From a virus (Duplodnaviria; Heunggongvirae; Uroviricota; Caudoviricetes), in IMG/VR virus record IMGVR_UViG_2850802633_000004: a stretch of DNA of 41,734 bases. One strand, given 5' to 3'. The notes beneath the pieces are model-generated. The model worked only from the letters and a program-made list of their open reading frames with translations, was not told where the DNA came from and searched no databases. Below are positions 24,770 through 41,688 of the stretch, piece by piece (position 1 is the stretch's first letter; every line of letters starts with the position of its first letter). Both the position numbers and the translations under genes were made by a program.

Positions 24770-25718
24770 TGAGGTGTACTGGCAATAGCGGACACTACCA
24801 TTTGTTCTTTTTTTAAGCAGTCATCTGATGATATTTTTCCCTGAAGGCTGCCGGGGAGATATTCCCCAGACGAGAGTGACGACGCTGACGATTGTAGAAA
24901 ATCTCAATGTATTCCCGTATTACTGAGATGGCTTCATCCCGGTTATTAAAACGATAGTGGCTCAGGCTCTCATTTTTCAGCGTTCCCCAGAAGCTTTCCA
25001 TCGGAGCGTTGTCGTAACAGTTACCTTTACGCGACATTGATGTTTTCAGACCAGACTGCTCCTGTATGACCCGGTAATCGTATGCGCAGTACTGTGAACC
25101 TCGATCAGAGTGGTGGATTAGCCCGGCAGGTGGGCGCTGGCTCCTGAGCGCCATAAACAGGGCTTTACCTGTCAGCTCTTTTGTCATGCGCTCTCCCATG
25201 GCGTAGCCGACAATTTCACACGTATAAACATCTTTGATGCCAGCGAGGTACAACCATCCCTCCTGTGTGGCAACATACGTCAGGTCCGCCACCCAGACCT
25301 GATTTGGTGCTGTAGGAGCGAACGTCTGGTTCAGCAGATTTGGCGCAACTGGCAGATTGTGGTTCGGGTTCGTAGTCGCTCTGAACTTGCGTTTCTGCTT
25401 ACAGCGTAGCCTCAGCTCCTTACGAAGACGTGCCAGTCGGTCACGACCAACGATGATGCCATTCTCTGCCAGCTCCGTCTGGAGCCGCCGGGTTCCATAT
25501 GTTTCGCGAGTGCGGATATGTGCCACCTTAATCTCCAGTTTTAGCCGCTCATCACTTTGTTTTCTGTCTGAGGGTTCATGCTGTACCCAGTTGTAATAAC
25601 CGCTCCTGGATACACCAAATACCTGACACATCGCTTCAATGGGAAATTGTTGTCGCCATTGTTCGATTAACGCGTATTTTTCAGCGACTCCTGTGCAAAA
25701 TACGCTGTTGCTTTTTTT
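24770..25718 (-). mobile_element. IS600 copy 3, truncated (orfA end missing) by IS1 copy A
   Basis: IS600 sequence from the orfB-side terminus runs to ...GCTGTTGCTTTTTTT then abuts the IS1 inverted repeat. Confidence 0.85.
24813..25631 (-). CDS. IS600 OrfB transposase
   Basis: 272-aa ORF. Confidence 0.85.
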   Translation of the reverse strand: MCQVFGVSRSGYYNWVQHEPSDRKQSDERLKLEIKVAHIRTRETYGTRRLQTELAENGIIVGRDRLARLRKELRLRCKQKRKFRATTNPNHNLPVAPNLLNQTFAPTAPNQVWVADLTYVATQEGWLYLAGIKDVYTCEIVGYAMGERMTKELTGKALFMALRSQRPPAGLIHHSDRGSQYCAYDYRVIQEQSGLKTSMSRKGNCYDNAPMESFWGTLKNESLSHYRFNNRDEAISVIREYIEIFYNRQRRHSRLGNISPAAFREKYHQMTA

Positions 25719-29262: not shown

Positions 29263-29337
<75 letters not shown>

Positions 29338-29340
29338 ATA

Positions 29341-29416
<76 letters not shown>

Positions 29417-29418
29417 GC

Positions 29419-29495
29419 TGGCCCACCACCGAGGACTCGAACCTCGCACCGTCAACTTAGAAGGTTGATGCTCTATCCGGATGAGCTAGTGGTGG
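29419..29495 (-). tRNA. tRNA-Arg (anticodon UCU)
   Basis: Hand-folded; acceptor CCACCAC/GTGGTGG, anticodon loop CTTCTAA, T-loop TTCGAGT, CCA end. Confidence 0.75.
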
Positions 29496-29496
29496 T

Positions 29497-29573
29497 TGGT
29501 GGCCCTTGCTGGACTTGAACCAGCGACCTGGCGATTATGAGTCGCTCGCTCTGACCAACTGAGCTAAAGGGCC
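29497..29573 (-). tRNA. tRNA with CAU anticodon (elongator Met or lysidine-modified Ile2)
   Basis: Hand-folded; acceptor GGCCCTT/AAGGGCC with G1-C72 pair (not initiator-like), anticodon loop CTCATAA, T-loop TTCAAGT, CCA end. Confidence 0.75.
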
Positions 29574-29684: not shown

Positions 29685-30334
29685 TCTTTCAAGTGTCCAT
29701 GTCTGCTATTCGCCTCGCGATACAGCTTTGCGAAGCTTACCGGAATTGAAGCAGTTTATGTGCAAAAATGCAAGAACTTTTTTAAAGCTGCATCAACCTT
29801 TCCACCAGTTTATCTCTGCGAACAACAAACCAACCATTGGCTCTCGCCAGTTCCAGCCATGACTCAAGGGAAATAACAATATCATCATCCCGTAACTGAA
29901 TTGTGGAAACAGTGACACCGCCTCTCTGATAACAGAGAACTCGCGTGTCGTAACTTTTCTGGCATGAAACTGGCGTTGACGGATCCCTTTGACTGAAATA
30001 GCAGTCTTCCAGTTTTTCGAACACATCCCACGCCTGATCGGTTTCGAGCATTTTGCCGTGGCGTGCTGCGCCTCGTTCTGTCCAGAGGATGAGGGAGCGG
30101 GCTTTGGGTGAAACTGGATTTTGTGAGTAGTTTAAAGCGACCCGCAATTCTTTAAGGTCATTACCAACAACTTTGAAAAAGTGTTTCCCTTCAACGAAGC
30201 GTACTTTGTTCTCATGATGATTCTGGCGAATACGCACCGGCTCAGTGCCGTAAAGCTGCGCCAAAAGTTCGGTGGTAATAACAGGAATCTGTGAGGTGTA
30301 CTGGCAATAGCGGACACTACCATTTGTTCTTTTT

Positions 30335-31153
30335 TTAAGCAGCCATCTGATGATATTTTTCCCTGAAGGCTGCCGGGGAGATATTCCCCAGACGAGAGTG
30401 ACGACGCTGACGATTGTAGAAAATCTCAATGTATTCCCGTATTACTGAGATGGCTTCATCCCGGTTATTAAAACGATAGTGGCTCAGGCTCTCATTTTTC
30501 AGCGTTCCCCAGAAGCTTTCCATCGGAGCGTTGTCGTAACAGTTACCTTTACGCGACATTGATGTTTTCAGACCAGACTGCTCCTGTATGACCCGGTAAT
30601 CGTATGCGCAGTACTGTGAACCTCGATCAGAGTGGTGGATTAGCCCGGCAGGTGGGCGCTGGCTCCTGAGCGCCATAAACAGGGCTTTACCTGTCAGCTC
30701 TTTTGTCATGCGCTCTCCCATGGCGTAGCCGACAATTTCACACGTATAAACATCTTTGATGCCAGCGAGGTACAACCATCCCTCCTGTGTGGCAACATAC
30801 GTCAGGTCCGCCACCCAGACCTGATTTGGTGCTGTAGGAGCGAACGTCTGGTTCAGCAGATTTGGCGCAACTGGCAGATTGTGGTTCGGGTTCGTAGTCG
30901 CTCTGAACTTGCGTTTCTGCTTACAGCGTAGCCTCAGCTCCTTACGAAGACGTGCCAGTCGGTCACGACCAACGATGATGCCATTCTCTGCCAGCTCCGT
31001 CTGGAGCCGCCGGGTTCCATATGTTTCGCGAGTGCGGATATGTGCCACCTTAATCTCCAGTTTTAGCCGCTCATCACTTTGTTTTCTGTCTGAGGGTTCA
31101 TGCTGTACCCAGTTGTAATAACCGCTCCTGGATACACCAAATACCTGACACAT
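30335..31153 (-). CDS. IS600 OrfB transposase
   Basis: 272-aa ORF. Confidence 0.9.
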   Translation of the reverse strand: MCQVFGVSRSGYYNWVQHEPSDRKQSDERLKLEIKVAHIRTRETYGTRRLQTELAENGIIVGRDRLARLRKELRLRCKQKRKFRATTNPNHNLPVAPNLLNQTFAPTAPNQVWVADLTYVATQEGWLYLAGIKDVYTCEIVGYAMGERMTKELTGKALFMALRSQRPPAGLIHHSDRGSQYCAYDYRVIQEQSGLKTSMSRKGNCYDNAPMESFWGTLKNESLSHYRFNNRDEAISVIREYIEIFYNRQRRHSRLGNISPAAFREKYHQMAA

Positions 31154-31188
31154 CGCTTCAATGGGAAATTGTTGTCGCCATTGTTCGA

Positions 31189-31491
31189 TTAACGCGTATT
31201 TTTCAGCGACTCCTGTGCAAAATACGCTGTTGCTTTTTTTAATATATCTCGCTCAAGGCGAGCTTCATTTAACGCCTTACGCAGTTGCAGAATTTCAGAT
31301 TCCAGTTCAGCCACCGTGCGGGAACCAGGAGTACCGAGCCCTTTTCTGGCGGCGGTAACCCATTGTCCTAAAGTGCCTTCAGGAAGGGATAATCGGGAAG
31401 CGCCTTCACTGATCGAAAGTTGATTTTCAAGAACCGTTCTGACAGCTTCGGCTTTGAACTCTTTAGAGTAACGTTGGGTTTTTCTGCTCAT
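31189..31491 (-). CDS. IS600 OrfA
   Basis: 100-aa ORF. Confidence 0.9.
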   Translation of the reverse strand: MSRKTQRYSKEFKAEAVRTVLENQLSISEGASRLSLPEGTLGQWVTAARKGLGTPGSRTVAELESEILQLRKALNEARLERDILKKATAYFAQESLKNTR

Positions 31492-31769
31492 TATTAGCTC
31501 CTTCTGATGCCATTCTATTTCAGGAAGGAGTGTCCGTTAAACTCAGGCTACCTCACTGGTTATGGGTGATCGGGGAGAGAGTTTCAACAGAGATTTGAGT
31601 GGTCATAACGATAACTCCGTACATTTGGAAATTATCGCCACCGACGACGCCAATCGAACTGGTGGCGAACTGTGCAGGGTTGGCGTAACCGGGTACGGAA
31701 ACCGGCGAGCCTTTCGGCTCCCCCACACAGCCCGCCATAAATCGCGAATGTGACTGTGCAAACGATATG

Positions 31770-31791
31770 AAAAAAGACGCGGGCGCGTCTC
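31770..31791 (-). terminator. tR'-like intrinsic terminator downstream of Q (AGACGCG-cc-CGCGTCT + U6)
   Basis: Hairpin and T-run read on minus strand about 60 nt downstream of the putative PR' -10. Confidence 0.6.
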
Positions 31792-31852
31792 ATATCGCTC
31801 CGTAAACATCCGGGACGCCAATCCCGACGCCAGATTTTGCTGGCGCGTGAGG

Positions 31853-31882
31853 AATATAGCCCCGGATAACAGATTGAGTCAA
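31853..31882 (-). promoter_or_regulatory. PR'-like late promoter (-35 TTGACT, 18-bp spacer, -10 TATATT)
   Basis: Hexamers read on minus strand immediately after the Q-like gene stop; classic Q-PR'-tR' arrangement. Confidence 0.55.
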
Positions 31883-32433
31883 CAAACGGTTTTTAGATCC
31901 CCGGAAGAGAATGCATCACGCATCGGTAGATAGAGCATATATTCAGCAAGATTTAGCCATACATCTACCCGACTGCAGCACGTCCGGAAACACCACTCAG
32001 GGTGTGCGTCATTCAGCAATTCAGCCATTTTACGCTTAGTCATCCCCCGCCCTTCATACCGTTGCCGGAGGACACTAATCAATCCAGGATGCTCTGCCAG
32101 CACCTCACTTATGACTCTATCAATACATAACGCCTCTGCATCAGTACAATGCGCCAGCCAGGTCTTTTGCTTGCCATTGATCATCTCTCGCAAAAACGCT
32201 TCCAGCTCAGGTTTCTCTATTCCCGCTTTTTTCATCCTGCGCAGGGCTTCATTGACGGCTGTTTTCGTCAATTTTTTGGATGCCAGCAACTGGTTAAACA
32301 TATTTCCCGTCTTACCGCCGCCAATATACGACCAGCGCCCCCACATGCGCAGTTTTCCCTGAATCCAGACACTTTCCAGCGTGGTGAGACGAAGGTGTTC
32401 CCCGCTTTTGCCTGTATTTGTTGGGTAAATCAT
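31879..32433 (-). CDS. Putative late-gene antiterminator Q (positional assignment)
   Basis: 184-aa ORF from internal Met (MIYPTNTGKSGEHL...), start overlaps ybcO-like stop (ATGA); followed by PR'/tR'-like signals; family not verified. Confidence 0.5.
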   Translation of the reverse strand: MIYPTNTGKSGEHLRLTTLESVWIQGKLRMWGRWSYIGGGKTGNMFNQLLASKKLTKTAVNEALRRMKKAGIEKPELEAFLREMINGKQKTWLAHCTDAEALCIDRVISEVLAEHPGLISVLRQRYEGRGMTKRKMAELLNDAHPEWCFRTCCSRVDVWLNLAEYMLYLPMRDAFSSGDLKTVC

Positions 32434-32720
32434 AAATAACCTTCCTTTCTCCAGATTTCTTGTGTGCGAAAAACACCTTCTGCATGCATCAGGCGTAATT
32501 CTTCTTTGGTGTAATCGCTGGTTTTTACCCGCCCGTCGATTAAATCGTGGCATGAGCTACAGGCAATCGCTGCCTGCATATCGTGTGGTTTTGTCGCTGT
32601 TCCGCACGTCCCCGCCAGCCTGTAATGCGCCAGCACAGAAGTTTCGGGATTGTGATTGCAGTAGCCAGGAATTCTGACGGTGCACATCTGCCCCCGCGCC
32701 GCTTTACGTAAATCCACCAT
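32430..32720 (-). CDS. ybcO: YbcO-like nin-region protein (DUF1364, Cys/His-rich putative nuclease)
   Basis: MVDLRKAARGQMCTVRIPGYCNHNPETSVLAH... closely parallels my recollection of E. coli DLP12 YbcO. Confidence 0.75.
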   Translation of the reverse strand: MVDLRKAARGQMCTVRIPGYCNHNPETSVLAHYRLAGTCGTATKPHDMQAAIACSSCHDLIDGRVKTSDYTKEELRLMHAEGVFRTQEIWRKEGYL

Positions 32721-33319
32721 TACGCAAACTCCAGTAACTGCGCGGCCACATTTTCGACTTCCTCCGGAGAGGAAAATTTACGGAACAGGATCCAGTTCCA
32801 CAGCACATTCAGTACAGATTTATAAACCTGCTGAAACTCGGTTTCGTCCATGTTCGCAAATGCGATAGATTTTGCCCTGCGCCCACGACTACCATCAGGA
32901 TAAATATGCTCGGTGTAAAATCCGGCCTGAATGGTTACCCACTCGCGGAAAGCGTCAAACGACTTTAGCAATGCCGTATCCCGGGTTCTGCATGTCGCAA
33001 CTGTATTAAGGTATTGCTCTGCGGCATCACTCAGGGCTGGAGTGTGTTCCCGACCTACTGATTCGCACAGGTAATCAACGAAGCCTGATACCAGTTTTCG
33101 TTCGCGAGGCGTGATCGCCCCACCGACCGGAGTCCAGTAATCAAATCCCAGTTGCAGGAGTTTGAAAAAACGCTTGTGGAATGCGTAGTTACGCACACGC
33201 TTAAAGTCTGCGTGTATCCACTCACCTATTTTGATTTGATGCAAAAAATCGCAACTCTCCGGCGTCGCCGGGAGAAGTAATCCGGAAGAGGTTTGTTTGA
33301 CCAGTTGTATATGCGCCAT
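32720..33319 (-). CDS. Lambdoid nin-region protein (DUF1367-like), 199 aa
   Basis: ORF immediately upstream of ybcO-like gene with overlapping start/stop; family from memory. Confidence 0.5.
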   Translation of the reverse strand: MAHIQLVKQTSSGLLLPATPESCDFLHQIKIGEWIHADFKRVRNYAFHKRFFKLLQLGFDYWTPVGGAITPRERKLVSGFVDYLCESVGREHTPALSDAAEQYLNTVATCRTRDTALLKSFDAFREWVTIQAGFYTEHIYPDGSRGRRAKSIAFANMDETEFQQVYKSVLNVLWNWILFRKFSSPEEVENVAAQLLEFA

Positions 33320-33452
33320 CGTAGTTCTCCGCTGGCGCAGTAGAATGGGTGTTCAGCCCGTTATGTAGTATACCAGAATTAATGCCAATACTAACAGGGT
33401 AATGCTGCCAACTTACTGATTTAGTGTATGATGGTGATTTTAAGGTGCTTGC

Positions 33453-33728
33453 GTGGCTTCCATTTCCATCAGATGTCCTTCCTGCTCCGCTACTGAAGGC
33501 GTGGTGCGTAACGGCAAAAGCACTGCCGGACATCAGCGCTATCTCTGCTCTCATTGCCGTAAAACATGGCAACTACAGTTCACTTACACCGCCTCTCAGC
33601 CCGGTACGCACCAGAAAATCATTGATATGGCCATGAATGGCGTCGGATGTCGCGCCAGTGCACGCATTATGGGCGTTGGCCTCAACACGGTTTTACGTCA
33701 CTTAAAAAACTCAGGCCGCAGTCGGTAA
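33453..33728 (+). CDS. insA: IS1 InsA
   Basis: 91-aa ORF. Confidence 0.9.
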
Positions 33729-34150
33729 CCTCGCGCATACAACCGGGCAGTGATGTGATTGTCTGCGCTGAAATGGACGAACATTGGGGCTACGTCGGTG
33801 CTAAATCACGTCAGCGCTGGCTGTTTTACGCGTATGACAGGATACGGAGGACGGTTGTGGCGCACGTCTTCGGTGAACGCACTCTGGCCACACTGGAGCG
33901 TCTTCTGAGCCTGCTGTCGGCCTTTGAGGTCGTGGTATGGATGACGGATGGCTGGCCGCTGTATGAACCACGCCTGAAGGGAAAGCTGCACGTTATCAGC
34001 AAGCGTTACACTCAGCGCATTGAGCGACATAATCTGAATCTGAGACAACATCTGGCAAGGCTGGTACGGAAGTCACTGTCGTTCTCAAAATCGGTGGAGC
34101 TGCATGACAAGGTCATCGGGCATTATCTGAACATAAAACACTATCAGTAA
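33647..34150 (+). CDS. insB: IS1 InsB
   Basis: 167-aa ORF. Confidence 0.85.
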
Positions 34151-34167
34151 GTTGGAGTCATTACCTA

Positions 34168-34419
34168 CTAACAGGATGCTCTGACTCGCAATTCATCCAG
34201 CAGTTTATCATTTCCCATAATGTCACTTACCCTCATCGGTAAAAAAATTGCCTTTCGACCATTACGATACATTATTGATTTTGGGGTTTCAGGGAAGTAA
34301 TCCATTTCGACTATAACTGACAGGTCATCACGACGTATGACTGCGTATTTGCTACTAAATAGTTTCTTTATTTTTTCCACGATGCCCCCAGGTTTATAAG
34401 TACAAACGGTTATATCCAC
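34168..34419 (-). CDS. Hypothetical protein (83 aa); stop codon lies in the IS1 target duplication
   Basis: ORF with AT-rich upstream region; no recognised family. Confidence 0.4.
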   Translation of the reverse strand: MDITVCTYKPGGIVEKIKKLFSSKYAVIRRDDLSVIVEMDYFPETPKSIMYRNGRKAIFLPMRVSDIMGNDKLLDELRVRASC

Positions 34420-34564
34420 ATAGAGACAAAAATATTAATCTGATAAATATTTATTTCACGCCGTATATTTGATTGTTTAATGTGCAAGTACAATGACTTT
34501 TATTTTTTGTTGTGTATATAATCAAATATATGGTTATTTTTCACCCTGCGTATTCAGCACGCAA

Positions 34565-34586
34565 CAAAAAACCCGCCGAAGCGGGT
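34565..34586 (-). terminator. Rho-independent terminator downstream of hokD (ACCCGC-cgaa-GCGGGT + U-run on minus)
   Basis: Read directly. Confidence 0.6.
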
Positions 34587-34655
34587 TTAGTGCGGGTGCG
34601 TTGAGGATGCCTGACACATGAGAGGTGGCGAGGGATTTCTCCCCCGCCTGGTCTC

Positions 34656-34811
34656 TTACTCCTCAGGTTCGTAAGCTGTGAAGACAGCGACCTCCGTCTG
34701 GCCGGTTCGGATTCGTACCTCGCAGAGGTCTTTCCTCGTTACCAGTGCCGTCACTATGACGGTTAAACAGATGACGATCAGGGCGATTAACATCGCCTTT
34801 TGCTGCTTCAT
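34656..34811 (-). CDS. hokD: Hok/Gef-family type I toxin (HokD/RelF-like, 51 aa)
   Basis: MKQQKAMLIALIVICLTVIVTALVTRKDLCEVRIRTGQTEVAVFTAYEPEE matches my recollection of E. coli HokD; in-frame upstream extension in ORF track is probably not translated. Confidence 0.85.
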   Translation of the reverse strand: MKQQKAMLIALIVICLTVIVTALVTRKDLCEVRIRTGQTEVAVFTAYEPEE

Positions 34812-35154
34812 AGCCTGCTTCTCCTTGCCTTTCGGCACGTAAGAGGCTAACCTACATTTGTGAGACATAGATTGGGCCTCAGATTAATGTTAAGCGTCTT
34901 GCAGGACGCGTAATGTTAACTGGGGCTTTTCTCTGTCTGCCTTACAGTGGCATGCCCGAGGCAGACAGCCTCAAGCACCCGCAGCAATCTTACCGATACC
35001 GATAAGAAAACGCTATTTTTTATTGCCAGCACCTTCTATCCAGGCTAATTTATCTGCGTCAGAACGGCGCAATGCGCTCGCCTGAGATACGTTTACTTGC
35101 CATGGTAACAACAGGTAACGGCAATTGCTGTTTCTGTTTTGTTTCCTTCAAAAA

Positions 35155-35180
35155 CCCCGGACCATCAATCCGGGGTTTTT
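35155..35180. terminator. Hairpin CCCCGGA-ccatcaa-TCCGGGG flanked by A4 and T5 runs, putative bidirectional terminator
   Basis: Read directly; lies between DUF551 gene and hokD. Confidence 0.55.
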
Positions 35181-35265
35181 GTTTGTTAACCCCAACGGCA
35201 AATCGAATACACCACCAGCGCCACCGCCATCGCAATTCCTACCGTGGTGAATGCCTCAGGCCAGG

Positions 35266-35631
35266 TCATTGATTCACCTCCTGCGGTGGTTCCGGTAGCG
35301 GCATCCAGTGAGTTGAGCTCTCTACTTCAACGCCGTCTTTGTCCACAAAAGCCATCTTATTCCCGCCACGAGTGGGGCAAAAAACCTTATCCCAGGAACC
35401 GGGGAATACATTCCCGAGATCATCGAGAAGAATCACATCGCAATATTCAGCAGGAACTGCATCACTACAGCTTATCCAGCCAGCCAGAGTTACCGGAGAG
35501 TTGCCAGCCTTACGCATGGCCATTTCCACGATTTCAACCATATCTCCTGGTGGAATTTTACAAAGTTGCCCAATACATTTCTGCTGCCTGGCATATTCGA
35601 GAATGTGCTCCAGTTTGGTTCGATTAATCAT
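35266..35631 (-). CDS. DUF551-family prophage protein (121 aa)
   Basis: C-terminus ...WISCSDAVPAE...THWMPLPEPP matches the DUF551 signature I recall from enterobacterial prophages. Confidence 0.6.
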   Translation of the reverse strand: MINRTKLEHILEYARQQKCIGQLCKIPPGDMVEIVEMAMRKAGNSPVTLAGWISCSDAVPAEYCDVILLDDLGNVFPGSWDKVFCPTRGGNKMAFVDKDGVEVESSTHWMPLPEPPQEVNQ

Positions 35632-36296
35632 TATTTATCTCCCTTAAGCATGGCAGCGCGGCAGGCGTTCCAGCCATCAACATAATCAAACGTATTACTA
35701 TCGTTTGGCCCGATTTCATCCGGCACTATCGGCTCTGGTTGGATAGTGACGTTGGCAAAGGCAGCACGCAAACCGGTTTTAATTTCTTCGATTTCATCAG
35801 AGCCAAGCGATGAATCTGACAGTGCGTGATGGAATGCGTAAGCCATGTCGTCGTTTACTGCAACCGGCACTGCCGGCGCTGCGTAAAGCGGTGTTATATC
35901 TGCCCGAAAATCACATGCTTTATGCAGTCGTACCCAACGCTCAACTTCCGCTTTGTAAAAATATATAGCAGTGAACGTATTAGATTCCTGGTCAACTTGA
36001 GTAAACGTCACCTTCCACGCTACAGCTACGGCTTTCCATCCATCAGGTTGTCGCATTCGCGGGGCAGCATAAAGCTCATGCATTCCATCAGGCAGCGAGT
36101 GACCCACATACTCACCGAACCCGTCAATACACATGCCCCCATCTTCAACAATGCATTCCGCTACAGGCTCTGCTTCCAGTGATGCCAGAGCGATAAGCGC
36201 CAGTTCACGAATTTCACCGCCGTCTATATCGTCAATATCATCGCGGCCAGAAATGTTAGCCAGCCATTGCAGTCGCTCTTTGGTAATAGTAGTCAT
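35631..36296 (-). CDS. Hypothetical prophage protein (221 aa) with internal LYAAP repeat
   Basis: ORF with start/stop overlaps to neighbours (operon-like); no family recognised. Confidence 0.5.
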   Translation of the reverse strand: MTTITKERLQWLANISGRDDIDDIDGGEIRELALIALASLEAEPVAECIVEDGGMCIDGFGEYVGHSLPDGMHELYAAPRMRQPDGWKAVAVAWKVTFTQVDQESNTFTAIYFYKAEVERWVRLHKACDFRADITPLYAAPAVPVAVNDDMAYAFHHALSDSSLGSDEIEEIKTGLRAAFANVTIQPEPIVPDEIGPNDSNTFDYVDGWNACRAAMLKGDK

Positions 36297-36658
36297 GCCG
36301 TAGCCCCTTCTTGATATTTTTCAAACCAGAACACAACCGGGTCAGATTTCATTTCAACCAATCCCATACGAACCAGCGCTTTGCCTTTCCCGGACGCAAG
36401 GAATTCACGACGACCATCACTGATAATTCGTCGATAATCTTCCAGGCTACTGCAATGCTTGTGCAGATTGCATGGGTGGCATTCTGGTACCATGTTGGAT
36501 ATATCGTCACGTTCCTGGTGAAGCATATTTCCATCAAAACGAATGACCGGTTTTACATGGTCTGCATGCCACTTTTCGCCAAGTTCGCAGCCGCAATAAG
36601 CGCAGCGACCACCGAACTTCATGCGCAGTTCTGCACGTTGTTTTTTCGTCAGTGCCAT
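36293..36658 (-). CDS. HNH endonuclease (about 121 aa from internal Met MALTKKQ)
   Basis: HNH motif CAYCGCEL...WHADHVKPV...NMVPECHPCNLHK. Confidence 0.7.
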   Translation of the reverse strand: MALTKKQRAELRMKFGGRCAYCGCELGEKWHADHVKPVIRFDGNMLHQERDDISNMVPECHPCNLHKHCSSLEDYRRIISDGRREFLASGKGKALVRMGLVEMKSDPVVFWFEKYQEGATA

Positions 36659-36970
36659 ATCAGCTTTCCTTATACGGATTAATTTTATTGTGCAGTGTGT
36701 TGAATGACGCCCATACCACGTCGTTATACAATTCAATAACTGGCTCAATTATTTTTCCGATTATCCAGACAAAAATTTGCGGGGATATCGGTGTCATCAA
36801 CACGATAAACAGAATGAGAAACAGGAATTCTGTTGTTCTACTCTTTCGCGGATATTTTTTTCTAAATAATGTAACCATTCATTACCGCCCTTTCGGGCGG
36901 TCTCCTGATGATTTGAGGGTGCAGAAATCCCTCCGGTTAAGGATTAAATTTTTAACAGTGCTAAATTTAA

Positions 36971-37327
36971 TTATTCAGTTCTGGATTTTGTCGCCCTGCG
37001 TATCCGCGCTTTCGCGTTACGCTCAATCTGTATCAGCTTTTCTATATTTCTCCGCCTTTCCTGTTCCTCCTGGCGCAATAGCCTTACATCATCTGCCAGT
37101 CTGGTTTCTCTTTTTGCCACAGAGAGCATCCAGTCAAACGGCTCCACAACCGCACCGCAGATTTTACAGCGGACCTGACGCTCTTTTTCGTCAACCCGTA
37201 CAGAGGCGTGATGGCAATATGGTCTTTCCGATGGCTTATAAAGAAAATTAACCTGATTACGAGGGTCATCCTCTTTTATCGGAAATAAAACGATATTGCT
37301 TAACTCATCTTCTGGTTTTATTTCCAT
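36971..37327 (-). CDS. Hypothetical Cys/His-containing phage protein (119 aa); IS600 copy 5 inserted 41 bp upstream of its start
   Basis: Start MEIKPEDE preceded by RBS AAGGAGAGGAG; ORF-track start at 37384 lies inside IS600. Confidence 0.5.
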   Translation of the reverse strand: MEIKPEDELSNIVLFPIKEDDPRNQVNFLYKPSERPYCHHASVRVDEKERQVRCKICGAVVEPFDWMLSVAKRETRLADDVRLLRQEEQERRRNIEKLIQIERNAKARIRRATKSRTE

Positions 37328-37411
37328 GCTCCTCTCCTTTGATGCGAATGCCAGCGGTAATTGAAGCCTGAGGTGTACTGGCAATAGCGGACACTACCAT
37401 TTGTTCTTTTT

Positions 37412-38230
37412 TTAAGCAGTCATCTGATGATATTTTTCCCTGAAGGCTGCCGGGGAGATATTCCCCAGACGAGAGTGACGACGCTGACGATTGTAGAAAA
37501 TCTCAATGTATTCCCGTATTACTGAGATGGCTTCATCCCGGTTATTAAAACGATAGTGGCTCAGGCTCTCATTTTTCAGCGTTCCCCAGAAGCTTTCCAT
37601 CGGAGCGTTGTCGTAACAGTTACCTTTACGCGACATTGATGTTTTCAGACCAGACTGCTCCTGTATGACCCGGTAATCGTATGCGCAGTACTGTGAACCT
37701 CGATCAGAGTGGTGGATTAGCCCGGCAGGTGGGCGCTGGCTCCTGAGCGCCATAAACAGGGCTTTACCTGTCAGCTCTTTTGTCATGCGCTCTCCCATGG
37801 CGTAGCCGACAATTTCACACGTATAAACATCTTTGATGCCAGCGAGGTACAACCATCCCTCCTGTGTGGCAACATACGTCAGGTCCGCCACCCAGACCTG
37901 ATTTGGTGCTGTAGGAGCGAACGTCTGGTTCAGCAGATTTGGCGCAACTGGCAGATTGTGGTTCGGGTTCGTAGTCGCTCTGAACTTGCGTTTCTGCTTA
38001 CAGCGTAGCCTCAGCTCCTTACGAAGACGTGCCAGTCGGTCACGACCAACGATGATGCCATTCTCTGCCAGCTCCGTCTGGAGCCGCCGGGTTCCATATG
38101 TTTCGCGAGTGCGGATATGTGCCACCTTAATCTCCAGTTTTAGCCGCTCATCACTTTGTTTTCTGTCTGAGGGTTCATGCTGTACCCAGTTGTAATAACC
38201 GCTCCTGGATACACCAAATACCTGACACAT
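37412..38230 (-). CDS. IS600 OrfB transposase
   Basis: 272-aa ORF. Confidence 0.9.
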   Translation of the reverse strand: MCQVFGVSRSGYYNWVQHEPSDRKQSDERLKLEIKVAHIRTRETYGTRRLQTELAENGIIVGRDRLARLRKELRLRCKQKRKFRATTNPNHNLPVAPNLLNQTFAPTAPNQVWVADLTYVATQEGWLYLAGIKDVYTCEIVGYAMGERMTKELTGKALFMALRSQRPPAGLIHHSDRGSQYCAYDYRVIQEQSGLKTSMSRKGNCYDNAPMESFWGTLKNESLSHYRFNNRDEAISVIREYIEIFYNRQRRHSRLGNISPAAFREKYHQMTA

Positions 38231-38265
38231 CGCTTCAATGGGAAATTGTTGTCGCCATTGTTCGA

Positions 38266-38568
38266 TTAACGCGTATTTTTCAGCGACTCCTGTGCAAAAT
38301 ACGCTGTTGCTTTTTTTAATATATCTCGCTCAAGGCGAGCTTCATTTAACGCCTTACGCAGTTGCAGAATTTCAGATTCCAGTTCAGCCACCGTGCGGGA
38401 ACCAGGAGTACCGAGCCCTTTTCTGGCGGCGGTAACCCATTGTCCTAAAGTGCCTTCAGGAAGGGATAATCGGGAAGCGCCTTCACTGATCGAAAGTTGA
38501 TTTTCAAGAACCGTTCTGACAGCTTCGGCTTTGAACTCTTTAGAGTAACGTTGGGTTTTTCTGCTCAT
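38266..38568 (-). CDS. IS600 OrfA
   Basis: 100-aa ORF. Confidence 0.9.
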   Translation of the reverse strand: MSRKTQRYSKEFKAEAVRTVLENQLSISEGASRLSLPEGTLGQWVTAARKGLGTPGSRTVAELESEILQLRKALNEARLERDILKKATAYFAQESLKNTR

Positions 38569-38651
38569 TATTAGCTCCTTCTGATGCCATTCTATTTCAG
38601 GAAGGAGTGTCCGTTAAACTCAGGCTACCTCAGCCTGATAGCTAATTTCAT

Positions 38652-39074
38652 TCACAGTATCGCCTCCTGAAAATTACCCTGATAGAAAGCCAGTACACGC
38701 TGCATAGCTTCGCTCTTCCGGCACTCGCGACAGATTATATTCAGGCGCCTGTCGTAGCGGCGTATTTCTCCGTCAGGTAATGACCAGATAAGGTCCGGAT
38801 CAACAACAACCGGTTTCCTCACCTTTACTCTCGAGAGTTTTTTGCGGGCGCTTTGCCAGTCCTTGCGAGCCTGTTCAGACGGGAATAAGCCGTAGCCAGA
38901 ATTATATACATCACCACTTGCGACCAGTTCTATGCATAAGCGACCGACAGACGCACGACTGATACCTGTTTCATCGGACAACTGCCGAATCGTGACCCGA
39001 CCGTCCTGATGCACGAGTTCCACAATTCGCGTCTTCAGTTCTTCCCGCTGTTCGGGAGTAAAAGGTTTCGCCAT
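38652..39074 (-). CDS. Ren-like HTH protein (140 aa)
   Basis: C-terminus IICRECRKSEAMQRVLAFYQ resembles lambda Ren C-terminus (from memory); sits directly downstream of the DnaC-like gene. Confidence 0.5.
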   Translation of the reverse strand: MAKPFTPEQREELKTRIVELVHQDGRVTIRQLSDETGISRASVGRLCIELVASGDVYNSGYGLFPSEQARKDWQSARKKLSRVKVRKPVVVDPDLIWSLPDGEIRRYDRRLNIICRECRKSEAMQRVLAFYQGNFQEAIL

Positions 39075-39088
39075 AAATCCTCCTGAAA

Positions 39089-39835
39089 CTACTTAACAAC
39101 CCTCGAATGGCTAACATTCGGACGCCAGCTCTCCCAGTTAAAATTAACCCAGCGCCCGCCTTTCATGACCATGCGATCCATCACCCGCTCGCCGAGAAGT
39201 GTATTCATCGCTGCATGGTTAATATTTGTCAGCATCCCCACACCGCGTAACGATGCCGTCCGGCGATCAACAATCTGGTTCAGTACCACCTGCTCGTTTT
39301 TCGTATCCCGCTGCATGCCAATTTCATCCAGGACCAGCAGGTCAACACCACAAAGCTCCTGTAAAAATTTTTCACCGGATTTGCCGTTGTCGTAGCTCTC
39401 ATGCAACACGCTCATGACATCGGACACGGTGACGATAATCACGCTACGCCCCTTCGCCATCAGCCGGTTGCCAATCGCGGCTGCAAGATGATTTTTTCCG
39501 GTGCCGGGCTTACCGCTGAACACAAAATTCGTACAGCCTGTCATCAGTTCGTCAGCTATGGATTTCGCCTGACTCAGTGCATGTCGCTGACCGTCGTTCT
39601 GCGCCCGGTAATTCGCAAACGAACACTTCCGGTGCAACGGCTGGATGCCGGAGCGGTTCAGGATTTTTTCCACCCGCAACTGACGATTCAGGCGGTTGAT
39701 CTCCTCGCAACGTTTCTGGCCTTCAGCAAGTTGCCACTCGCGCCACTCCGCAACCGTTCTGAATGGGGCGGTTACATGTGGTGGGGTCAGTCTGCGGATA
39801 CGCTCCAGAACGCCTCCTGTCGCAATATTTTTCAT
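39089..39835 (-). CDS. Phage replication protein, DnaC/IstB-like AAA+ helicase loader
   Basis: Walker A GKPGTGKNHLAAAIGN, Walker B DLLVLDEIG, LTNINHAAMNTLLGERVMDR closely parallel E. coli DnaC. Confidence 0.8.
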   Translation of the reverse strand: MKNIATGGVLERIRRLTPPHVTAPFRTVAEWREWQLAEGQKRCEEINRLNRQLRVEKILNRSGIQPLHRKCSFANYRAQNDGQRHALSQAKSIADELMTGCTNFVFSGKPGTGKNHLAAAIGNRLMAKGRSVIIVTVSDVMSVLHESYDNGKSGEKFLQELCGVDLLVLDEIGMQRDTKNEQVVLNQIVDRRTASLRGVGMLTNINHAAMNTLLGERVMDRMVMKGGRWVNFNWESWRPNVSHSRVVK

Positions 39836-40582: not shown

Positions 40583-41688
40583 TAGACTGGCCCCCTGAAT
40601 CTCCAGACAACCAGTATCACTTATTTAAGTGATAGTCTTAATACTAGTTTTTAGACTAGTCATTGGAGAACAGATGATTGATGTCTTAGGGCCGGAGAAA
40701 CGCAGACGGCGTACCACACAGGAAAAGATCGCAATTGTTCAGCAGAGCTTTGAACCGGGGATGACGGTCTCCCTCGTTGCCCGGCAACATGGTGTAGCAG
40801 CCAGCCAGTTATTTCTCTGGCGTAAGCAATACCAGGAAGGAAGTCTTACTGCTGTGGCCGCCGGAGAACAGGTTGTTCCTGCCTCTGAACTTGCTGCCGC
40901 CATGAAGCAGATTAAAGAACTCCAGCGCCTGCTCGGCAAGAAAACGATGGAAAATGAACTCCTCAAAGAAGCCGTTGAATATGGACGGGCAAAAAAGTGG
41001 ATAGCGCACGCGCCCTTATTGCCCGGGGATGGGGAGTAAGCTTAGTCAGCCGTTGTCTCCGGGTGTCGCGTGCGCAGTTGCACGTCATTCTCAGACGAAC
41101 CGATGACTGGATGGATGGCCGCCGCAGTCGTCACACTGATGATACGGATGTGCTTCTCCGTATACACCATGTTATCGGAGAGCTGCCCACGTATGGTTAT
41201 CGTCGGGTATGGGCGCTGCTTCGCAGACAGGCAGAACTTGATGGTATGCCTGCGATCAATGCCAAACGTGTTTACCGGCTCATGCGCCAGAATGCGCTGT
41301 TGCTTGAGCGAAAACCTGCTGTACCGCCATCGAAACGGGCACATACAGGCAGAGTGGCCGTGAAAGAAAGCAATCAGCGATGGTGCTCTGACGGGTTCGA
41401 GTTCTGCTGTGATAACGGAGAGAGACTGCGTGTCACGTTCGCGCTGGACTGCTGTGATCGTGAGGCACTGCACTGGGCGGTGACTACCGGCGGCTTCAAC
41501 AGTGAAACAGTACAGGACGTCATGCTGGGAGCGGTGGAACGCCGCTTCGGCAACGATCTTCCGTCGTCTCCAGTGGAGTGGCTGACGGATAATGGTTCAT
41601 GCTACCGGGCTAATGAAACACGCCAGTTCGCCCGGATGTTGGGACTTGAACCGAAGAACACGGCGGTGCGGAGTCCGGAGAGTAACGT
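40583..41688 (+). mobile_element. IS2 copy 2, truncated at about 41688 where sequence diverges from IS2
   Basis: Left end identical to copy 1; from 41689 (after ...GGAGAGTAACG) sequence no longer matches copy 1. Confidence 0.8.
40674..41039 (+). CDS. insC: IS2 InsC
   Basis: Identical to 7806..8171. Confidence 0.9.

Follow-up and report, generated by a model that had tools for sequence, protein, structure and literature searches.

Positions 34168-37368 of the window (the whole stretch of DNA that was analysed, 41,734 nucleotides) carry a minus-strand block of small genes, a hok toxin locus and one further short gene, bordered by an IS600 element on one side and an IS1 element on the other (Table 1). 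The features that the first-pass annotation had named in this span were all recovered at or near the coordinates first given, and the proposed position of the cargo, between the DUF977 gene (phrog_142, called 'Ren-like') and the DUF1367, YbcO and Q-like genes, was confirmed by Pfam and phrog matches. The block had been described as four minus-strand genes. All four are present, but the gene for a DUF4014 protein and a 27-aa ORF had been overlooked, and the order is 118-aa, DUF4014, HNH, 221-aa, DUF551 and 27-aa ORF, that is six genes. These are close-packed or overlapping, the block starts beyond a 57-nt spacer that follows the DUF977 gene, and an intrinsic terminator ends it and insulates hok/sok.

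Table 1. Position, strand and supporting features of the elements in and around the segment
Feature	Position	Strand	Remarks
IS1, 768 bp	33398..34165	+	9-bp duplication TACTAACAG, 33389..33397 and 34166..34174
phrog_1813 protein	34168..34419	-	83 aa from first GTG (34419); stop intact
Predicted full-length hok mRNA	34566..34980	-	Rfam RF01794, fold, hokW identity
hok (51 aa)	34656..34811	-	Pfam HOK_GEF 81.6 bits
mok (70 aa), in frame, contains hok	34656..34868	-	layout as annotated mokW/hokW
Predicted Sok antitoxin RNA	34860..34930	+	mapped by alignment from annotated sokW of 933W
Bidirectional intrinsic terminator	35149..35181	.	hairpin, 13 pairs, T-runs on both strands
Unannotated hydrophobic ORF, 27 aa, MTWPEAFTTVGIAMAVALVVYSICRWG	35186..35269	-	follows DUF551
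DUF551 protein, 121 aa	35266..35631	-	Pfam PF04448 69.9 bits; phrog_924
221-aa mosaic protein	35631..36296	-	phrog_60, 12449, 5117, 660
HNH endonuclease domain, stand-alone, 121 aa	36293..36658	-	Pfam HNH; phrog_2118 188 bits
DUF4014 protein, 72 aa	36660..36878	-	Pfam PF13198 88.4 bits; phrog_1832 148 bits
118-aa protein, phrog_1621	36971..37327	-	C-x-H...C-x2-C zinc ribbon, then long basic helix
Target-site duplication GCC (plus strand)	37366..37368 and 38633..38635	.	3-bp direct repeat
IS600 (IS3 family), copy 5 of the window	37369..38632	-	1264 bp; orfA + orfB

Proteins of the block and of its downstream flank

The five larger genes of the block all fall within known phage families, and their ORFs are all intact and 98-100% identical to E. 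coli counterparts. Of 5426 complete E. coli genomes, 2 carry the exact block and 2507 carry parts of it. As for the proteins left as unknown in the first-pass annotation, for which ordinary NinF/NinG-type functions had been considered, they are not of the NinF/NinG types but do belong to common, catalogued phage families. An NCBIfam scan of all block proteins returned nothing useful.

The first gene encodes 118 aa and not the 119 aa first given, while the Cys/His character ascribed to its product was upheld by the C-x-H...C-x2-C motif. The long basic helix that follows is highly conserved (NIEKLIQIERNAKARIRR), and the AlphaFold2 model (pLDDT 76) places strands at residues 43-54 and a helix at 63-117. 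Foldseek comparison of this model with PDB and BFVD yielded no match under E = 0.1 other than generic zinc-ribbon overlaps, and sequence and profile searches of PDB were empty. An assignment to the Pfam TFIIB zinc ribbon was rejected at 21.1 bits (threshold 29), as was a 137-aa variant of the ORF starting at TTG 37384, an artefact whose start is inside IS600, the homologues beginning at the ATG.

The DUF4014 protein, which contains a hydrophobic segment and is annotated in E. coli relatives, lies between the 118-aa and HNH genes and matches profile positions 1-71 of 72, with a score far above the threshold of 23.2 bits. The gene reported earlier for an HNH endonuclease was confirmed, as one for an HNH domain protein, by the phrog_2118 match and, marginally, by Pfam PF01844 (22.8 bits, threshold 21.4). 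Its product shows the motifs CxxC...HxDH...CxxC..H, its start is that of RefSeq WP_001229296 and its 3' end overlaps the 221-aa gene by 4 nt. NinG/Rap (PF05766) was discarded for it, as it scored 16.4 bits where 25.4 are required and only profile positions 94-147 of 193 match, over a shared HNH-like motif.

The LYAAP repeat noticed in the 221-aa protein occurs twice, at residues 74-78 and 137-141, and the protein is in fact built from short modules, each closing in LY(A)AP, which are common to proteins annotated as DUF551 or ead/Ea22-like. It has no Pfam domain of its own, and no sequence or profile match was obtained in PDB, including the solved lambda Ea22 structure; its AlphaFold2 model is unreliable (pLDDT 47.9). 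Classification as ead/Ea22-like (PF13935) was rejected in the lack of a Pfam match, only short modules being held in common with proteins so annotated. The DUF551 gene that follows is secure, as the full-length domain is matched with a threshold of 22 bits.

The 27-aa ORF is absent from RefSeq annotation. Its start codon and the stop of DUF551 share an ATGA, a GGAGG lies 8 nt upstream, and in all three of the copies inspected it follows the last Ea22/DUF551-type gene, again with an ATGA overlap. By tblastn it was detected in 90 phage records, with amino-acid identities of 59-100%, and by blastn its 84-nt sequence was detected in about a quarter of the complete E. coli genomes (1290 of 5426). 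That it encodes a real, widespread small membrane protein, seemingly translationally coupled to the Ea22/DUF551-type gene ending the array, is a serious possibility, to which we give slightly less than an even chance, the apparent coupling being suggested by the ATGA overlap together with the GGAGG site.

Beyond the hok locus, the phrog_1813 ORF lies inside the span described earlier, though it was left out of that description. The RefSeq orthologue is annotated with 70 aa, which corresponds to a start at GTG 34380 here. The ORF was also considered as a homologue of Rem, since K-12 rem likewise encodes 83 aa and follows hokD; despite the equal length, the sequences are unrelated. IS1 is inserted 2 nt beyond the phrog_1813 stop and parts this gene from the DUF1367-YbcO-Q-like genes; the same IS1 is found in S. 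flexneri relatives.

The hok/mok/sok locus

The Hok protein matches HokD of E. coli K-12 with 100% identity, and its HOK_GEF score compares with a threshold of 22 bits. An overlapping mok frame (34868..34656) starts upstream of hok in the same frame. The mRNA leader is recognized by Rfam RF01794 at 34806..34980 with 118.1 bits (gathering score 59), and the predicted mRNA folds at -175.4 kcal/mol (z = -7.9), whereby nt 1-12 in the minimum-energy fold, 5' GGGUGCUUGAGG, pair with 3' CCUCAACGCACCC in a fold-back. A -10-like TAAGAT is located at 34992..34987 and a terminator hairpin at 34588..34569. The earlier view of hokD as a separate unit with its own terminators is supported, as hairpins at 35149-35181 and 34569-34588 flank hok.

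A Sok-like antisense RNA, for which a search opposite the hokD leader had been advised, was found there as a predicted transcript with a predicted promoter (-35 TTGCCT 34825..34830, 17-nt spacer, -10 TAACCT 34848..34853). It would have a 14-nt single-stranded 5' tail followed by a terminator-like hairpin ending in UUUU, with a fold of -29.2 kcal/mol (z = -5.3). The two statements made about the surroundings of hokD were also correct: neither relB nor relE is near hok, and the setting differs from that of K-12 Qin, where the homologous sequence breaks off 14 nt before the hok ATG. Judged from its sequence, the locus here is complete, with mok, a predicted Sok and its promoter, and the 5'-3' fold-back.

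Experiments have shown that the homologues hokW and sokW form a type I toxin-antitoxin pair (PMC8621323). Because of this tested homologue and of the known hok/sok family, the hok/mok/sok locus would by analogy act as an autonomous type I toxin-antitoxin module. In such a module the 5'-3' fold-back pairing would keep the hok mRNA inert, translation of hok would be coupled to that of mok, and the short antisense Sok would pair with the mok leader and block expression.

IS600 and transcription of the block

The element next to the block is, as first annotated, the fifth IS600 copy of the window with a clean GCC duplication, and its end lies exactly 41 nt before ATG 37327, as had been stated. It has the features of the family: about 1.26 kb, orfA (HTH; 38568..38266, HTH_Tnp_1) then orfB (DDE/rve; 38230..37412), both on the minus strand, terminal inverted repeats that are imperfect (TGAGGT...CGGACACT) and a 3-bp duplication. 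Matching E. coli sequences carry the annotation 'IS3-like element IS600 family transposase', and the element has a promoter-like site of its own at 38617..38589.

Removal of IS600 and one GCC copy in silico leaves 57 nt between the DUF977 stop and the ATG of the 118-aa gene. This reconstructed empty site was matched exactly in seven S. flexneri loci, and the four of these that are orthologous share 99.7-99.9% identity with the window on either flank. The near-identity to S. flexneri CP055138, CP026788, CP054913 and CP182555 points to this species as the host. The IS600 junction was covered in none of the 5426 complete E. coli genomes and was not matched exactly in any GTDB species-representative genome. 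From the exact empty sites and the identity of their flanks, the insertion is read as recent and strain-specific. In E. coli FDAARGOS_944, ISEc52 is inserted in the same spacer 6 bp from the IS600 site; because the two elements went in so close together, the spacer could also be a preferred target for IS3-family elements, a weaker reading than that of the 27-aa ORF as a small membrane protein.

The suggestion that IS600 replaced or supplied the promoter of the block was not supported, as the spacer is reconstructed intact and there was no promoter at that spot to replace. In E. coli VL40 two further overlapping genes occupy the gap between DUF977 and the 118-aa gene, and the order runs DUF977, ..., DUF551, hok, hypothetical, DUF1367, DUF1364, DUF1133; the gene order of FDAARGOS_944 is the same. 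The spacer of only 57 nt in the empty site and the genes filling this gap in VL40 place the block inside the early-right operon. Consequently, the block has no promoter of its own at the insertion site, and IS600 interrupts an operon and replaces nothing. In the intact phage, as spacing and relatives indicate, the block and the replication genes would share a transcript starting at a pR-type promoter, and IS600, co-oriented with the block genes within the spacer, would break this transcription unit.

As to promoters in IS600 itself, a consensus scan found no outward promoter-like site at the block-facing end, the scan being crude (8 promoter-like sites found, 8.0 in shuffles), and an outward hybrid promoter at the right end was rejected by eye, as no usable -10 stands at a spacing of 16-18 nt from the TTGCCA of the terminal repeat. 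The sole candidate is read-through from the transposase promoter-like site at 38617..38589, which would at most add weak transcription. Promoters inside the block itself may also exist. The YdaU-like gene is split by another IS element, within which the window ends, and the promoter-proximal part of the prophage lies beyond. The near-identical S. flexneri loci lack the immunity region, and IS600 and then a chromosomal LysR-type gene adjoin the remnant ydaU' there; because of these loci the native pR is probably gone. Any residual transcription of the block may well originate in IS elements, and to that extent the idea of an IS600 promoter keeps some ground.

In its full form this idea holds that IS600 drives the block, from the transposase promoter or from a hybrid outward promoter, and substitutes for the lost phage promoter. 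The orientation of IS600 agrees with it, no minus-strand terminator-like hairpin is predicted from the orfB stop (37412) to ATG 37327, the 118-aa gene retains its ribosome-binding site and start, and where immunity region and pR are missing an IS-borne promoter may be the nearest one upstream. On the other hand, the right end offers neither an outward promoter-like site nor a usable -10 for its TTGCCA, IS3-family transposase promoters are generally weak, and the spacer sequence is wholly kept on both sides of the insertion. Furthermore, the block ORFs are all intact in strains with the empty site, so that the insertion is unneeded for their upkeep. We consider it improbable that IS600 drives the block.

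Interpretation and relation to known systems

Taken together, the segment 34168-37368 belongs to a defective lambdoid prophage of the Rac/Qin type in Shigella flexneri, of which it forms the accessory part equivalent to nin, and its content is ordinary. We are highly confident in the joint reading of an early-right-operon accessory segment with a complete hok/mok/sok module and a recent, operon-interrupting IS600. The block genes are shuffling modules of the ead/Ea22/DUF551 kind, which in other lambdoid phages are found in the early-left region.

The segment could instead be the inert debris of a dead prophage, in which nothing beyond hok/sok is expressed or functional and decay has simply been too recent to disrupt the ORFs. 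The IS elements that cut the prophage at ydaU, at 37369 (IS600), at 33398 (IS1) and, as a further IS600, after the Q-like gene fit such a state, as does the immunity region missing in relatives; the intactness of all ORFs and their 98-100% identity to E. coli counterparts speak against it, and on balance we find it unlikely, if less so than block transcription driven by IS600. Debris is a statement about present activity and not about identity, and as such it is compatible with the best explanation. A dedicated anti-phage defence or superinfection-exclusion island, with its own regulation and hok/sok as an abortive-infection component, is by far the least probable of the alternatives. Accessory regions of prophages often carry defence genes, a role of Hok in phage defence has been reported, and the HNH domain weakly matches Septu PtuB models (PADLOC, E = 3.6e-7, 28 bits). 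These matches, however, span the generic HNH motif only, no PtuA-type ATPase is present and PADLOC models match no other block protein, so that a complete system is lacking. In addition, the genes recombine independently among phages with no fixed set, and in the cited survey hok is not enriched near defence systems.

The significance of the region is small beyond bookkeeping. It is an example of prophage operons being taken apart as IS elements expand in Shigella, and the S. flexneri strains with filled and empty sites form a natural genotype pair in which polarity or read-through caused by IS600 could be measured. Also documented here is the complete hokD form behind the truncated relBE-hokD of K-12. 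The conserved unannotated 27-aa ORF ending Ea22/DUF551 arrays is the only item with some discovery value.

In phage lambda the nin region comprises the accessory genes ninA-ninI between ren and Q in the early-right operon. The present segment has the same position, from replication and 'Ren-like' genes to the late regulator, and likewise consists of small, dense, overlapping accessory genes that are part of the early-right operon. Its gene content, in contrast, is non-homologous, the sole resemblance being the HNH motif with NinG, below the Pfam threshold, and the modules resemble in kind those of the exo-xis/early-left region in other lambdoid phages. In phage ArgO145 and related Stx2a phages (gp10-gp17) the HNH, DUF4014 and 118-aa genes are 93-95% identical in DNA, and the ArgO145 27-aa mini-ORF segment is 95% identical to that at 35186..35269; these copies, however, lie on the integrase side (early-left), interleaved with genes for ead/Ea22-like and small hypothetical proteins, and no hok/sok follows them.

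IS600 corresponds to the known IS3-family element in size, in its two consecutive frames, in its TGAGGT repeats and in its 3-bp duplication, only the insertion site being particular to the strain. The closest known relative of the toxin locus is hokW/mokW/sokW of the Stx2 phages 933W and Sp5 (VT2-Sakai). Positions 34589-34988 of the window align with it over about 400 bp at 92.8% nucleotide identity, mok likewise shares its frame with hok, the antisense Sok is also 71 nt long and, as here, the 27-aa mini-ORF lies immediately upstream. The relative differs in that hokW is placed at the far end of the early-left array, whereas the locus here is flanked by the replication genes and the Q-like gene; the intrinsic terminator ahead of the locus is absent from the Sakai copy, and in the 5' recognition tail of sokW about 8 of the initial 18 positions are different. 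With K-12 Qin relB-relE-hokD, which has the same position upstream of the Q-type antiterminator region, the identity is 98.5% but covers only 259 bp (the hok CDS and 3' end). The K-12 locus is without the mok start, the Sok gene with its promoter and the 5' fold-back partner, and relBE stands in their stead. Given where K-12 homology ends ahead of the hok ATG, the sequence comparison marks relBE-hokD as a truncated derivative of an arrangement whose complete form is held in the window.

Gene order and surroundings of the minus-strand block

A lambdoid early-right gene series occupies the minus strand of the window between 31.8 and 40.6 kb, as listed below from high to low coordinates. The coordinates and features reported for this stretch by the first-pass annotation hold with three corrections. 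The first gene of the block encodes 118 aa rather than 119, and the genes named were all present but the list had missed both the DUF4014 gene between the 118-aa gene and the HNH gene and a 27-aa ORF after DUF551. The Rfam matches to CssrB and "sok (CssrC)", the density of IS600 and IS1 and an identity of 99.7-99.9% with four complete Shigella flexneri chromosomes together assign the window to an S. flexneri-type genome. The arrangement is that of an ordinary decayed Shigella prophage, all parts of which are of already known kinds.

Features of the early-right region, from high to low coordinates
Feature	Coordinates	Strand	Remarks
YdaU-like replication gene	interrupted at ~40583	-	split by another IS element (IS ORFs on plus strand; region 40583..41734)
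DnaC/IstB-like ATPase	39835..39089	-	
DUF977	39074..38652	-	phrog_142, "Ren-like"
IS600	38632..37369	-	1264 bp
118-aa protein gene	37327..36971	-	
DUF4014	36878..36660	-	
HNH nuclease	36658..36293	-	
221-aa protein gene	36296..35631	-	
DUF551	35631..35266	-	
27-aa ORF	35269..35186	-	
Hairpin terminator	35181..35149		
hok/mok/sok	34980..34566	hok/mok -, Sok +	
Predicted Sok	34860..34930	+	-35 TTGCCT, 17-nt spacer, -10 TAACCT
phrog_1813 gene	34419..34168	-	
IS1	34165..33398		768 bp, 9-bp duplication TACTAACAG
DUF1367, YbcO, DUF1133/Q-like genes	33319..31879	-	

The IS1 lies 2 nt beyond the phrog_1813 stop codon and stands between the DUF1367-YbcO-Q-like genes on one side and hok and the phrog_1813 gene on the other. 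Of the four orthologous S. flexneri loci, L006, L008 and L010 carry this insertion as well, while the fourth, L012, passes into chromosomal genes at this point.

Two sets of isrK and C4-antisense RNA matches were noted (31658..31859, minus strand, and 6927..7115, plus strand), one of which includes a c4-a1b1 target. Directly after the Q-like gene comes the first set, which is followed in E. coli relatives by an ORF6N (antirepressor-like) gene, here by IS600 copy 4 (30292..31555, CTG duplication). At the sites 11381..12644 and 24770..25718, one IS600 copy is without a matching 3-bp duplication (CTG vs GAG) and is preceded by an IS600-end-like sequence, and another is truncated at nt 316 and adjoins an IS1 end (GGTAATGACT). 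Further entries (2631..2813, 15664..15780, 29266..29573) comprise a CssrB sRNA match (151.6 bits), the ALIL frameshift pseudoknot of an IS3-family element and a minus-strand cluster of four tRNA genes, which corresponds in E. coli relatives to the prophage tRNA set (Ile, Arg, Thr, Gly) that follows the Q-like gene.

IS600 and transcription of the block

The IS600 copy upstream of the block was confirmed as a 1264-bp element with a GCC duplication (plus strand), 41 nt from the ATG at 37327, and it had been proposed that it may have replaced or supplied the promoter of the block. Once IS600 and one GCC copy are taken out, a spacer of 57 nt separates the DUF977 stop from the 118-aa ATG, and this reconstructed empty-site sequence has an exact match in seven S. 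flexneri loci, four of which belong to the orthologous prophage with its IS600 site empty; CP055138 and CP026788 are examples of empty-site strains. In E. coli VL40 the junction is filled by two extra overlapping genes, DUF4406 and an ead/Ea22-like gene, and in E. coli FDAARGOS_944 the same spacer holds an ISEc52. These comparisons argue that the block is a continuation of the replication-gene operon and not a self-standing unit, and that the insertion point held no promoter to be replaced; the proposed replacement is consequently not borne out. By the same comparisons the insertion itself is recent and strain-specific, and searches of 5426 complete E. coli genomes and of the GTDB representative genomes gave no copy of it.

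A contribution of IS600 to transcription was weighed with promoter-like and terminator scans. No outward-facing site was found at the IS600 end, but the element's own transposase promoter-like site is present and no minus-strand terminator was found downstream of it, so that weak read-through into the block may occur. As for the native early promoter of the operon, the phage immunity region is lacking from the near-identical loci of S. flexneri (L006, L008, L010 and L012, 1..2300), where ydaU' is adjoined by an IS600 followed by a chromosomal LysR-type gene. Since this region is gone in these relatives, the early promoter has probably been lost from the prophage of the window as well; the window ends inside the IS splitting ydaU.

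The ISEc52 of FDAARGOS_944, a different and unrelated IS3-family element with a TAG duplication of its own, lies at a distance of 6 bp from the IS600 site (window 37366..37372; FDAARGOS_944 locus L001, 6590..6600 and 7851..7860), and the spacer is a possible insertion hot spot of this IS family. Part of the IS600 left end resembles the target, TCAGGCT.

Cargo proteins and module shuffling

The reading of the block as cargo is supported, all five larger proteins belonging to catalogued phage families. The 118-aa family is spread across Enterobacterales prophages, and both its C-x-H...C-x2-C motif and its basic helix are invariant; the predicted model consists of a small zinc ribbon and a helix of ~55 residues, for which a structural-neighbour search gave no informative match. 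The HNH protein consists of an HNH domain alone, and as a NinG candidate it scored below the NinG threshold. LYAAP does occur in the 221-aa protein, twice, and alignment of its relatives identifies L-Y-x-x-P as the end mark of short shuffled modules. The protein is a mosaic of such modules, elsewhere joined to DUF551 or annotated as ead/Ea22-like, and its structure model was unreliable. No defence-system model fits the block.

The hydrophobic 27-aa ORF (MTWPEAFTTVGIAMAVALVVYSICRWG) is without RefSeq annotation. Its start overlaps the DUF551 stop as ATGA, with GGAGG 8 nt upstream, and 90 phage records keep its 27 codons, with amino-acid identities of 59-100%. In each of three inspected copies, the ORF follows the final gene of the Ea22/DUF551 type and again overlaps it as ATGA. 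Of 5426 complete E. coli genomes, 1290 contain the 84-nt sequence, and roughly 1700 copies are present in E. coli. In phage POCJ13 the frame is cut off by a premature stop at codon 3.

Only two of the 5426 E. coli genomes contain the six-gene block in exact form, and 2507 contain fragments of it; phage ArgO145 and related Stx2a phages carry the HNH, DUF4014 and 118-aa genes at 93-95% DNA identity in their early-left region. Judged from these sequence comparisons, the distribution of the block is one of usual lambdoid module shuffling. In a second, paralogous S. flexneri prophage (L007, L011 and L013, 5957..6443), a 487-bp stretch in the region of the 118-aa gene matches window 36885..37371 at 100% identity, while the replication genes beside it reach only 91%. 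The downstream cargo is unlike that of the window and comprises a QueH-like protein of 221 aa, another hok with 89% identity, and Rem. The pattern suggests that the two prophages exchanged DNA recently.

The hok/mok/sok module compared with Qin and 933W

The description of hok as a separate module is supported by terminator-like hairpins on both of its sides. The mok frame is in frame with hok, and a Sok-like antisense RNA, sought opposite the hok leader, was found as a predicted gene whose RNA of ~71 nt would fold into the classic shape, a 14-nt 5' tail and a terminator hairpin (z = -5.3). The predicted fold of the full-length hok mRNA of ~415 nt brings the 5' end into pairing with a 3' element (z = -7.9). 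The Rfam model RF01794 ("sok antitoxin (CssrC)") matches the hok-mRNA strand (34806..34980, minus) into the hok start codon, with the Sok RNA on the opposite strand, and therefore represents the hok leader in sense orientation.

Enrichment of hok genes in prophages is known from a survey. The toxin protein of the window is identical to HokD of K-12 Qin, and relBE was correctly noted as missing beside it, unlike in Qin. DNA homology to Qin extends no further than 14 nt upstream of the hok ATG, the point at which relBE starts in Qin, whereas the window has the full locus; the lack of relBE is thus the complete state, presumably the ancestral one, and not an anomaly. This full locus is 92.8% identical to hokW/mokW/sokW of phage 933W, of which hokW/sokW is by experiment a type I toxin-antitoxin pair that helps phage release (PMC8621323).
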